Part shown: in pieces, positions 21,792-22,905 of the stretch
How the letters are laid out: every line of letters starts with the position of its first letter
Position numbering within the stretch: position 1 is the first letter of the stretch
Origin: a bacterium
GTDB taxonomy: Bacteria > Planctomycetota > B15-G4
Assembly (NCBI GenBank): GCA_030428785.1
Contig: JAUIEF010000007.1
Span: forward strand, 1,333 to 65,332
Direction of reading: 5' to 3'
Length of the DNA stretch: 64,000 nucleotides
Made by a program: the position numbers and the translations under genes
The notes under the pieces: model-generated
Told to the model about the DNA's origin: nothing
Databases searched by the model: none
What the model saw: the letters and a program-made list of their open reading frames with translations, nothing else

Positions 21792-21826
21792 GCGCGACGG
21801 GCGAGGGGAACGGGATCGCGTTTTCG

Positions 21827-22093
21827 GCCGAAGCCGAAGCCGAAGCCGAAGCCGAAGCCGAAGCCGAAGCCGAACCCGAACCCGAAGCCGAACCCGAACC
21901 CGAAGCCGAACCCGAACCCGAAGCCGAACCCGAAGCCGAACCCGAAGCCGAACCCGAACCCGAAGCCGAACCCGAAGCCGAACCCGAAGCCGAAGCCGAA
22001 CCCGAACCCGAACCCGAACCCGAACCCGAACCCGAAGCCGAACCCGAAGCCGAAGCCGAACCCGAACCCGAACCCGAACCCGAACCCGAAGCC
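21827..22093 (+). repeat. hexanucleotide array 1: 44 units of GCCGAA or CCCGAA
   Basis: Counted directly. 8 perfect GCCGAA units (21827-21874) come first. After them, only the first base of each unit varies (G or C), aperiodically. Totals are 20 G-units and 24 C-units. The array starts 35 nt after the ThiF-like stop. No start codon lies in the EA/EP frame. Confidence 0.95.
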
Positions 22094-22201
22094 TCCTCTC
22101 GCTTCGCGAGAGTTCGGCGGCCGCTCACTTCGTGAGCGCCCCACAAGACTCCGGGGACACGACGTCGGTGGTCACCCGGCTGCGTGCTCGACGCACTGGG
22201 C

Positions 22202-22273
22202 GGGACTCCTTTCCTGGAATCGGGCGGGGCCCCCACTGGGCGTCACCCCACCCGATTCCAGGAAAGGAGTCCC
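22202..22273 (+). promoter_or_regulatory. perfect 23-bp hairpin sequestering the RBS of the four-helix-bundle gene
   Basis: GGGACTCCTTTCCTGGAATCGGG (22202-22224) is the exact reverse complement of CCCGATTCCAGGAAAGGAGTCCC (22251-22273). After one mismatch, 4 more bp pair (22226-22229 with 22246-22249), leaving a 16-nt loop. The 3' arm contains AGGAAAGGAG and ends 4 nt before ATG 22278. Confidence 0.7.
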
Positions 22274-22277
22274 TCAC

Positions 22278-22598
22278 ATGTTCGACGTCCTCGAGATCGC
22301 GATCCGCATGGTGGCCTCGCTTCGCTCGCCGTTGGCGACGCTCCAGGTGTGTGATCGCGACATGCACCGCCAGGTTCGGAGAGCTGCTGCCTCGGTGACC
22401 CTCAACATCTCCGAGGGTCAGCGTCGCGGCGGGAAGGATCGCCGGCATCACTGGCGCGTTGCGGCAGGTTCGGCGGACGAGGTGCGGACCGCGTTGCGTA
22501 CCGCGGTGGCGCTGGGTGACCTGCGCGAGGAGGACCTCGCCGAATCCTTCGAGCTCCTCGACCGCGTGCTCGCCATGCTCTGGAAGCTCACGCACTGA
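22278..22598 (+). CDS. four-helix-bundle protein (23S rRNA intervening-sequence protein / Avd-like family)
   Basis: Carries [42 protein letters not shown]. This matches the family hallmark xLRRAAxSIxxNIAEGxGR....F..IA.GSxxE. 106 aa, predicted all-helical. Confidence 0.8.
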
Positions 22599-22607
22599 CG
22601 AAGCGCC

Positions 22608-22636
22608 CCGCCCCGGCGGTCGAACCGCCGGGGCGG
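22608..22636 (+). terminator. GC-rich stem-loop after the four-helix-bundle gene (candidate intrinsic terminator)
   Basis: CCGCCCCGGCGG (22608-22619), loop TCGAA, CCGCCGGGGCGG (22625-22636). The stem is a perfect 12 bp and begins 10 nt after the stop. It is followed by TTCCGGTTTCGGTTTCGG, the T-richest stretch locally and the start of array 2. Confidence 0.45.
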
Positions 22637-22744
22637 TTCCGGTTTCGGTTTCGGTTCCGGTTTCCGATCCGGCTTCGGGTTCCGATTCGGCTTCGGTTTC
22701 GGCTTCGGCTTCGGCTTCGGCTTCGGCTTCGGCTTCGGCTTCGG
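22637..22744 (-). repeat. hexanucleotide array 2: 18 units NTTCGG/NTTCCG, inverted relative to array 1
   Basis: Counted directly. The 5' units are degenerate. The last 7 units are perfect CTTCGG (22703-22744). 22698-22744 is the exact reverse complement of 21828-21874. Confidence 0.95.
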
Positions 22745-22905
22745 AGCCGAGCGCGCCAGATCCCGTCATGGGACACCCGAATTCCGAGCACCCGTCCCGG
22801 CGCGGATCACTCCCGCCCCGCCCGCCGTAACCGCCACGGCACCCCGCCTGTTCACGCGGACCCGGTAGAATCCCCGCTCCCATCGCCGCCCGAAGGAGGA
22901 GAGCC

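Follow-up and report, generated by a model that had tools for sequence, protein, structure and literature searches.

Does a long inverted repeat around a small gene mark a processed RNA or a switchable piece of DNA, or can it come about merely through the way in which such genes are bordered? This question is raised by a locus in a stretch of 64,000 nucleotides (nt) from planctomycete contig JAUIEF010000007.1, which we call the window and in which a gene for a four-helix-bundle (4HB) protein lies between two arrays of a six-base repeat in opposite orientation. A first, sequence-only reading had likened this arrangement to the intervening sequences (IVSs) of 23S ribosomal RNA (rRNA), some of which carry an open reading frame (ORF) of the same family, and had suggested either a processed or excised RNA module or an invertible DNA segment. 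Our comparison with related loci leads us to favour, with moderate confidence, an explanation in which this region represents a single instance of a small-gene cassette that recurs at other loci; its arrays would be slippage-prone borders, its leader would gate translation and the inverted repeat would be incidental. The cassette combines (a) one or two runs of a six-base repeat starting with CCG, (b) a leader in which a long hairpin holds the ribosome-binding site paired to an anti-sequence farther upstream, (c) a 4HB gene of the 23S-IVS/Avd family with 105-107 codons and (d) a GC-rich terminator hairpin. Such an architecture appears to be undescribed so far, as we found no description of the array association or of the leader motif beside 4HB genes in the literature searched, the coverage of which was incomplete.

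Hexamer arrays and the four-helix-bundle gene

The 47-bp perfect inverted repeat that had drawn attention to the locus was reproduced at exactly the same coordinates, with 21828-21874, (CCGAAG)7+CCGAA, being the exact reverse complement of 22698-22744. A repeat finder extended the arms to 111 nt (21828/21834-21938/21944 versus 22634-22744) at 86-87% complementarity. The left arm lies in array A1 (21828-22090, plus strand), which comprises 44 hexamers CCGAAG or CCGAAC over 263 nt, the outer seven being pure CCGAAG, and which Tandem Repeats Finder reported over the same interval as 43.8 copies of period 6 with 91% matches. The right arm is array A2 (22634-22744, minus strand), opposite in orientation to A1, with about 18 hexamers reading CCGAAG on the minus strand; here, too, the outer seven units are pure, while the inner ones are degenerate (17.5 copies at 22640-22744 by the same program). 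We also found a third array that the sequence-only reading had not included: A3 (23565-23723, minus strand), about 26 degenerate hexamers (CCGAAS, CCGGTG and CCGAGG on the minus strand), is oriented like A2 and lies between convergent genes for a CsgG-like lipoprotein and an MBOAT protein. The hexamer repeat at this locus is far beyond chance: when up to two mismatches are allowed, (CCGAAS)3 gives 72 matches versus 0.04 expected over the 64-kb window, all of them in A1, A2 or A3, and these three are the only true period-6 arrays in the 64 kb, none more than 1.3 kb from the 4HB gene. The long perfect inverted match arises because two arrays of the same unit stand in opposite orientation.

Both halves of a further inverted 8-nt match outside the arrays are present, ACGGGATC at 21810-21817 and GATCCCGT at 22759-22766. 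This match is weak evidence, however, because, when pairs of 25-nt segments are drawn at random from the window, 3% of them show an inverted match of 8 nt or longer. The outer left flank (21810-21827, plus strand) contains ACGGGATC together with roughly three degenerate units that belong to the opposite (CGG) type, and a palindromic 10-nt junction, TTCGG/CCGAA (21823-21832), forms an orientation switch at the left border of A1. Unit counts in long arrays are uncertain because the arrays are assembly breakpoints. Contigs of related loci very often end within arrays (L121, L124, L129, L133, L135, L145, L148, L179, L210 and L211), and each of the five assemblies of the P0020 locus breaks off 266-330 nt before the gene. 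For the interior of the 263-nt A1, the counts may thus be inexact.

The DNA enclosed by A1 and A2 holds one credible ORF (22278-22598, plus strand; 106 amino acids), and its earlier assignment to the 4HB family of IVS ORFs was borne out. Both PF05635 (E 5.8e-15, 55.9 bits versus a cut-off of 33.8) and TIGR02436 (E 1.8e-15, 57.1 bits versus a cut-off of 24) matched above their cut-offs, and PDB entry 2GSC matched by sequence (E 2e-10). An AlphaFold model of the monomer, with a predicted local distance difference test (pLDDT) score of 96.9, gave Foldseek template modelling (TM) scores of 0.84 to 2GSC (Xcc0516) and 2RLD (BT_0352) and of 0.82 to Avd, both in 4DWL and in the Avd chains of 8UB7; sequence identity to Avd is about 10%. 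The protein is a member of PF05635/TIGR02436 and, in the model, folds like Xcc0516 and Avd, in keeping with the kinship to Avd that had been suggested. The subfamily comprises 312 clusters at 50% identity (E<=1e-10). Two proteins depart from the usual form: P0297 (230 amino acids) reads as a fusion of an N-terminal part like that of radical-SAM proteins and lipoyl synthase with the C-terminal half of a 4HB protein, and an internal duplication occurs within the 4HB protein P0007 (146 amino acids).

A scan of metagenome contigs with the subfamily alignment yielded 80 loci, and with L121 the survey comprised 81 loci and 92 genes, the products of which are 41-98% identical to the window protein. 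Of the 55 genes for which each flank reaches 300 nt or more, 50 have a period-6 array within 600 nt. By side, arrays lie upstream of 47/63 genes, downstream of 30/84 and on both sides of 13/55, and their density is 79 in the 106 kb near the genes versus 7 in the other 158 kb. The arrays range from 8 to 56 units. The unit varies among loci (CCGGTT, CCGCAG, CCGAGG, CCGATG, CCGATT, CCGGAG and others), nearly always with CCG first, and the two arrays of one locus usually share it. Since 1-nt indels and 7-nt units interrupt the arrays and TGA stands in all three frames of some of them, we consider the arrays non-coding. A role in loading Rho onto C-rich RNA was rejected, as the units range from C-rich (CCGAAC) to G-rich (CCGAGG) and their orientation to the preceding gene varies.

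The association holds in one direction only, from gene to arrays, because (CCGAAS)6 is neither lineage- nor 4HB-specific: a scan of genomes found it at no fewer than 120 loci in many phyla, and only one of those listed, L012, has a detectable 4HB relative. At L012 (300-1400, a Deltaproteobacteria metagenome-assembled genome, MAG), a distant 4HB gene of about 31% identity has CCGAAS-like arrays on its flanks. This locus also holds a 47-nt perfect palindrome (935-985) that bears a Shine-Dalgarno (SD) sequence and ATG on each strand; read in frame, one array extends the 4HB ORF by an SG/SA-rich stretch, and a radical-SAM gene lies on the other side. A solitary array of 330 nt was seen at L067 (3630-3960, Planctomycetota MAG HK-STAS-PLAN-21), with no 4HB gene within 4 kb. 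It begins directly after a stop codon, passes from GATCGG to GTTCGG to CTTCGG with a 1-nt indel, and has ACGGGATCGG as its left edge, like the outer 8-mer of the window.

Leader hairpin and dispersal of the cassette

The second conserved part of the cassette is its leader. In the window, the SD sequence AGGAAAGGAG (22260-22269) lies 8 nt before the ATG, inside the 3' arm of a leader hairpin of 72 nt with 23+4 bp (22202-22273, plus strand); the region just before the start codon has an 18-nt perfect complement upstream, and the predicted fold of 22085-22300 reaches -122.4 kcal/mol (z -7.8). Two compensatory substitutions in the hairpin were found among the window, L121, L208 and L209. Across the survey, the 19 nt before the start codon are perfectly complementary over 9 nt or more to a stretch farther upstream in 50/62 genes, with a median length of 13 nt versus 6 nt in shuffled windows. 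A longer leader with the conserved inner domain GGCGCA-N6-CGCGCC ... GTCACGG-N4-TGCGCC precedes 44 genes. For 29 of these long leaders, RNAalifold predicted 30 pairs, 20 of them with compensatory changes. Pairing was seen in 94.6% of cells versus 34-48% in slid controls and double changes in 117 cells versus 10-32, and none of 500 shuffles reached the observed values. The short form of the leader (window, L210) keeps the outer helices between SD and anti-SD, and the inner domain is missing. No family of Rfam 15 matches the leader or the arrays, the only matches being sub-threshold chance matches to microRNA models. Judging from this pairing, the hairpin would block translation of the 4HB gene until it is opened or cut. 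Conservation, which in the arrays concerns their presence and not how they are oriented, marks three parts of the cassette as probably functional: the arrays, the leader that sequesters the SD sequence, and the ORF.

Copies of the cassette are dispersed beside unrelated genes. Among 15 loci of one metagenome, homology (72-92%) was confined in 105/105 pairwise comparisons to a stretch that begins within the array and ends some 15 nt beyond the stop codon; the 3-kb flanks of the same loci were unrelated. The neighbouring ORFs (n=68) belong to assorted housekeeping genes, such as those for Hsp70, DapB, peptidases and sigma-54 activators. Loci orthologous to that of the window, one of them on a 5.3-Mb contig, share the synteny FabA-LGT-RNaseHII-ThiF with 77-80% identity of ThiF, and have neither a 4HB gene nor an array after ThiF. 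Because these orthologous sites are empty, the cassette, arrays included, is a gained or variable unit. We propose that the repeat runs are fast-changing, slippage-prone tracts at the borders of the cassette and that they would give homology for gain, loss, duplication and rearrangement of cassettes. Such a role would explain the shared unit on both sides, the turnover of units, the orientation switches and the loss of partner genes described below.

The arrays might instead be made or targeted by a dedicated mobility mechanism, through reiterative copying at the end of an element or insertion at arrays or stop codons. Non-LTR (long terminal repeat) retroelements, for instance, carry microsatellite tails. 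The extent of the repeated unit, from inside an array to about 15 nt after the stop codon, is consistent with this idea, as are like units on both sides in direct orientation, which fit an insertion into an array, and the homology of the protein to Avd, a cofactor of a reverse transcriptase. Moreover, among the upstream arrays of L122-L201, TAG lies within 20 nt of the outer edge in 13/42 cases compared with a background of 4.5%. However, neither a reverse transcriptase nor an integrase is among the 25 families listed (of 63 matched) for the 68 neighbouring ORFs, and no transposase is consistent among them, DDE transposases accounting for 3/68. Viral contigs yielded no relatives, and neither target-site duplications nor precise pairs of filled and empty junctions were obtained. 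The TAG of the window, furthermore, is ancestral to ThiF, as the orthologue in L202 also ends in TAG; for the same reason we rejected, at this locus, a cassette that supplies the TAG stop. We regard a dedicated mobility mechanism as unlikely. Arrays often begin directly after the stop codon of the upstream gene. The TAG at the outer edge often reads GGTAG/CCGG or GGAGTAGG, and the three stop triplets together occur 27 times among the 42 edges (triplets counted, not edges).

Origin and role of the array pair

The closest relatives suggest how the inverted arrays of the window came about. The protein of L121 is 98% identical to that of the window and the leader is near-identical, and its upstream array is (CCGGAG)n instead of the (CCGAAS)44 of the window. 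By blastn, L121 4-761 corresponds to window 22068-22810, so that homology begins inside the upstream array and is collinear across the cassette; it includes the right flank (22745-22810, plus strand), 66 nt common to both that hold GATCCCGT, and stops at 22810. The position of A2 is taken in L121 by some 105 nt of other sequence and then three degenerate units, versus 18 in the window; these 105 nt are the last 29 codons of a partner 4HB gene with a mutated stop codon (tblastn E 6e-4). In L208 (78% identity) and L209 (90%), this second, convergent 4HB gene stands directly after a shared terminator-like hairpin. The hairpin of the window (22608-22636, plus strand; a 13-bp GC stem with loop CGA, followed by the U-rich UUCCGGUUUCGGUUUCGG) separates the 4HB ORF from A2; homologous hairpins are present in L121, L208 and L209, and in relatives the hairpin lies between the two convergent 4HB genes. 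No remnant of a partner gene was found in the window.

Since the partner is intact in L208 and L209, truncated in L121 and gone in the window, A2 probably once stood upstream of a convergent 4HB gene and was orphaned when that gene was lost. The simplest history, as far as these sequences allow it to be traced, would be a stepwise loss of the partner that left its array abutting the terminator. The four cassettes adjoin different genes. Convergent, tail-to-tail 4HB pairs are common (L133, L135, L143, L146, L148, L154, L194, L208 and L209), and L166 (3692-3802) retains only an inverted leader remnant of a partner. In L208 the arrays lie upstream only. In L209 both inverted arrays, CCGGAG+(CCGAAG)7+CCGAAC and (GTTCGG/CTTCGG)x8, precede the gene, with some 100 nt free of any ORF between them; an orientation switch inside or beside them reads CCGAAC-CGCGCTTGCGCGCG-GGTTCGG (462-490).

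On the scale of the family, array orientation is free. Seventeen array pairs have a gene, or two convergent genes, between them; 10 of these pairs are direct and 7 inverted, and the majority of genes have an array at one side alone. In 4/7 inverted pairs the perfect inverted match is 17-51 nt long, the 51-nt match being that of L152. The arrangement in the window is one of two about equally common outcomes and not a conserved design. A fixed orientation of the upstream array relative to its gene was rejected as well, as arrays are direct in the convergent pairs L133, L135, L143 and L194. The survey of relatives for flanking inverted arrays that had been called for with the sequence-only reading thus found some genes so flanked, at a frequency that looks like free orientation and not like constraint. 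The complementary arms around the ORF are present in the window as described, whereas the stem-plus-ORF topology is not conserved in relatives. Because the runs of relatives lie in either orientation or on one side only, we take the A1:A2 stem to be incidental and the 47-bp inverted repeat to be a probable by-product of like arrays in opposite orientation.

Several points weigh against our explanation. The survey leans towards one metagenome and one subfamily, and a control with called intergenic gaps gave a contrast of only 28% versus 8% (p 0.07). We attribute this weak contrast to spurious long ORFs, which in DNA of 70+% GC cover arrays and leaders; the array association rests on the per-gene and per-kb counts, and the intergenic-gap confound is flagged here. 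Inverted pairs are not rare (7/17), and they predominate among the few two-sided copies of one metagenome. G-U pairs are nearly absent from the leader helices (6/868 cells in the alignment of L122-L200), which is unusual for a structure formed by RNA only, so that both strands, or DNA, could have to fold. The promoter was not located, and a promoter scan found no sigma-70-like site. The block (CCGAAG)7+CCGAA was found three times, at the outer edges of A1 and A2 and in L209 (420-466), and such recurrence is odd for a freely slipping tract. It occurs in the window and L209 despite only 90% identity of their 4HB proteins, by conversion, constraint or coincidence. Finally, CCG forms the constant portion of the unit in 82 arrays, and within arrays it is 2-3 times better conserved than the other three positions: departures from an array's own consensus affect the CCG positions in 11-13% of units and the other three positions in 21-34%, and the arrays could thus be specific binding sites instead of neutral tracts.

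This last point leads to the possibility that the arrays are binding platforms, on which a ring-shaped 4HB oligomer or another protein reads CCG/CGG every six bases and regulates or packages the locus, much as TRAP reads spaced GAG/UAG triplets. Besides the constancy of CCG, the pentameric rings of Xcc0516 and Avd, the latter of which sits on nucleic acid in the complex of diversity-generating retroelements (DGRs), would suit such a role, and independence of orientation fits the recognition of double-stranded DNA. We nevertheless give this possibility a low probability. Arrays also occur where no 4HB gene is nearby, as in L067 and at 119/120 listed (CCGAAS)6 loci in many phyla, the CCG bias could reflect GC-biased mutation, and 8-56 units (263 nt here) far exceed the reach of one pentamer.

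The processed or excised RNA module of the sequence-only reading would require that ThiF, A1, the 4HB gene and A2 are co-transcribed and that RNase III cuts the A1:A2 duplex, whereby the 4HB RNA would be released or destroyed. If both arrays were on one RNA they would indeed pair, the predicted fold of the 981 nt that hold A1 and A2 being very stable (-548 kcal/mol, z -16.5). The protein belongs to the family found in IVS loops, IVS stems are RNase III substrates (PMC4990558), and inverted arrays flank single 4HB genes also in L152, L160, L163 and L169. Against this model stand the free orientation (10 direct versus 7 inverted pairs), the one-sided arrays of most genes, the closest relatives, which are not enclosed, and the terminator-like hairpin that precedes A2. 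Cleavage in the arrays would, in addition, leave the SD sequence locked in its separate, local hairpin, and we think the model quite unlikely to be correct.

Less credible still is an invertible DNA switch, in which recombination between the inverted arrays (47 bp perfect, 111 bp imperfect) would flip the 4HB segment and so turn the gene on or off. Perfect homology of 47 bp suffices for RecA-type recombination, and the identical outer seven-unit blocks of A1 and A2 fit an exchange or a conversion. However, no recombinase gene is adjacent, neither a recombinase nor an invertase having been found among the ORFs of 17-27 kb or their Pfam hits. The cassette has its own leader and terminator, with no outside promoter apparent for a flip to connect, the only relative with sequence on both sides, L121, is collinear with it, and direct and one-sided arrangements are commoner in the family. 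On the evidence of the family the IVS-like and the switch models are not supported; at most, they might describe side effects at this particular locus. The arrays might also be coding, as dipeptide repeats that lengthen neighbouring genes or make up small ORFs. In favour of this reading, frame 0 is open from the ThiF stop to the 4HB start, the L012 array is in frame with its ORF and the variation of some arrays is synonymous in one frame. It is, however, largely refuted by the indels noted above; arrays also start after stop codons, are free in orientation and in some cases carry TGA in all frames. The open frame of the window (21789-22280), which runs through A1 as Pro-Lys and Pro-Asn repeats and through the leader and is the frame of both genes, is probably due to chance (P ~0.3 outside the array).

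Surroundings of the locus and relation to known systems

The GC content is about 74%. Upstream of the cassette lies a gene for an adenylyltransferase of the ThiF/MoeB family (20721-21791, plus strand; PF00899, E 2e-65), the TAG stop of which is 37 nt before A1; its best-named relatives are from Planctomycetota MAGs. Between A1 and the leader hairpin, two small hairpins are predicted on the plus strand, CTCTCGC-TTC-GCGAGAG (22096-22112) and CGCTCAC-TTC-GTGAGCG (22122-22138), the first of which is kept in L121 and L208. A promoter inside the leader was rejected, as a TTGACG-like motif is not conserved across leaders and the scan mentioned above gave no sigma-70-like site. Downstream, the CsgG-like lipoprotein gene (22906-23523, plus strand; PF03783, E 4e-6) is bracketed by A2 and A3 in direct orientation, and the MBOAT gene after A3 is convergent to it. 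The non-rRNA context that had been described is confirmed: no rRNA match was found in the 64-kb window, and an Rfam scan at gathering thresholds gave only two tRNAs, tRNA-Glu(CTC) at 42291-42368 and tRNA-Gln(CTG) at 48262-48335, both on the minus strand. PADLOC gave no match. A tandem repeat of 141 nt (1.8 copies, 75% matches) is present at 5957-6213.

The cassette resembles the ORF-bearing 23S rRNA IVSs of Coxiella, Leptospira and Brucella in its ORF, which belongs to the same family (S23p ORF, PF05635). In the Coxiella IVS, the SD region likewise lies within a stem, and variable heptamer repeats (GACAGAT x2-4) stand just upstream of the ORF (PMC4990558), a parallel to both the sequestered SD and the variable-copy short tandem repeats described here. 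IVSs have been suspected to be selfish or mobile (PMC4990558). Complementary termini enclose the ORF in the window as they do in an IVS, though this is not conserved in relatives. Unlike an IVS, the cassette is not located in helix 25 or 45 of a 23S rRNA gene but between genes for ThiF and a lipoprotein, its potential arms are hexamer microsatellites of about 111 nt and not unique 28-bp termini, and the orientation of the arms is unconserved among relatives of the window gene. Furthermore, its SD sequence pairs with a local upstream anti-SD and not with the far end of the element, and it has its own terminator. With DGRs the locus shares the fold of Avd (4DWL and the Avd chains of the DGR ribonucleoprotein 8UB7). 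However, the adjacent genes (ThiF, CsgG-like, MBOAT, LGT, RNase HII) include no reverse transcriptase, and we found no long direct repeat besides the hexamer arrays in 21000-23600 that could form a template/variable repeat pair. The locus is therefore neither an IVS, lacking rRNA, nor a DGR, lacking both a reverse transcriptase and such a repeat pair.

Likenesses to other systems are partial as well. In the simple-sequence-repeat contingency loci of Haemophilus and Neisseria, repeat tracts lie upstream of adhesin genes, and here, too, short-unit arrays stand beside a gene and shift quickly in unit number and type between close relatives such as the window and L121. In contrast to contingency loci, these arrays occur on either or both sides, at about 90-300 nt from the start codon, with a constant CCG and beside dozens of paralogous cassettes. 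Dispersed and structured intergenic repeats and cassettes are known as repetitive extragenic palindromic (REP) sequences and bacterial interspersed mosaic elements (BIMEs), miniature inverted-repeat transposable elements (MITEs), and integron cassettes with attC sites. Like these, the cassette is a small multi-copy unit with hairpin-forming borders that is found between unrelated genes and often after a stop codon; it differs in having an intact conserved ORF and microsatellite borders, and no cognate recombinase, such as a REP-associated tyrosine transposase (RAYT) or an integrase, was identified. Leaders that sequester the ribosome-binding site include RNA thermometers, leaders activated by RNase III and autoregulatory leaders bound by a protein. 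The SD paired in a long helix directly before the start codon is a feature shared with such leaders, and the conserved inner domain of the long form could bind a factor; the lack of an Rfam match and the near absence of G-U pairs set it apart from them.

To our knowledge, the 23S-IVS/S23p proteins, known for more than 30 years and abundant, are without a known function, and the origin of ORF-bearing IVSs is unexplained. As a conjecture that we consider improbable, the 4HB genes with their CCGNNN arrays and leader hairpin might form an unrecognised self-spreading cassette of high-GC bacteria (Planctomycetota, Myxococcota), whose microsatellite borders are created or targeted by the spreading itself and in which an Avd-like ring takes part by binding the CCG tracts or the hairpin; the ORF-bearing 23S IVSs would then be the same element landed in an rRNA helix.

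Overall, the main value of our analysis is corrective, as neither an IVS-like processing signal nor an invertible switch can be read from the 47-bp inverted repeat. Beyond this, it reveals that, outside rRNA, one large subfamily of 4HB proteins travels as a defined unit of hexamer array, SD-sequestering leader and ORF. This unit offers several handles on the family: a new covarying leader motif, a candidate ligand for the protein ring in the form of CCG every six bases, and sites that are filled in some genomes and empty in others.

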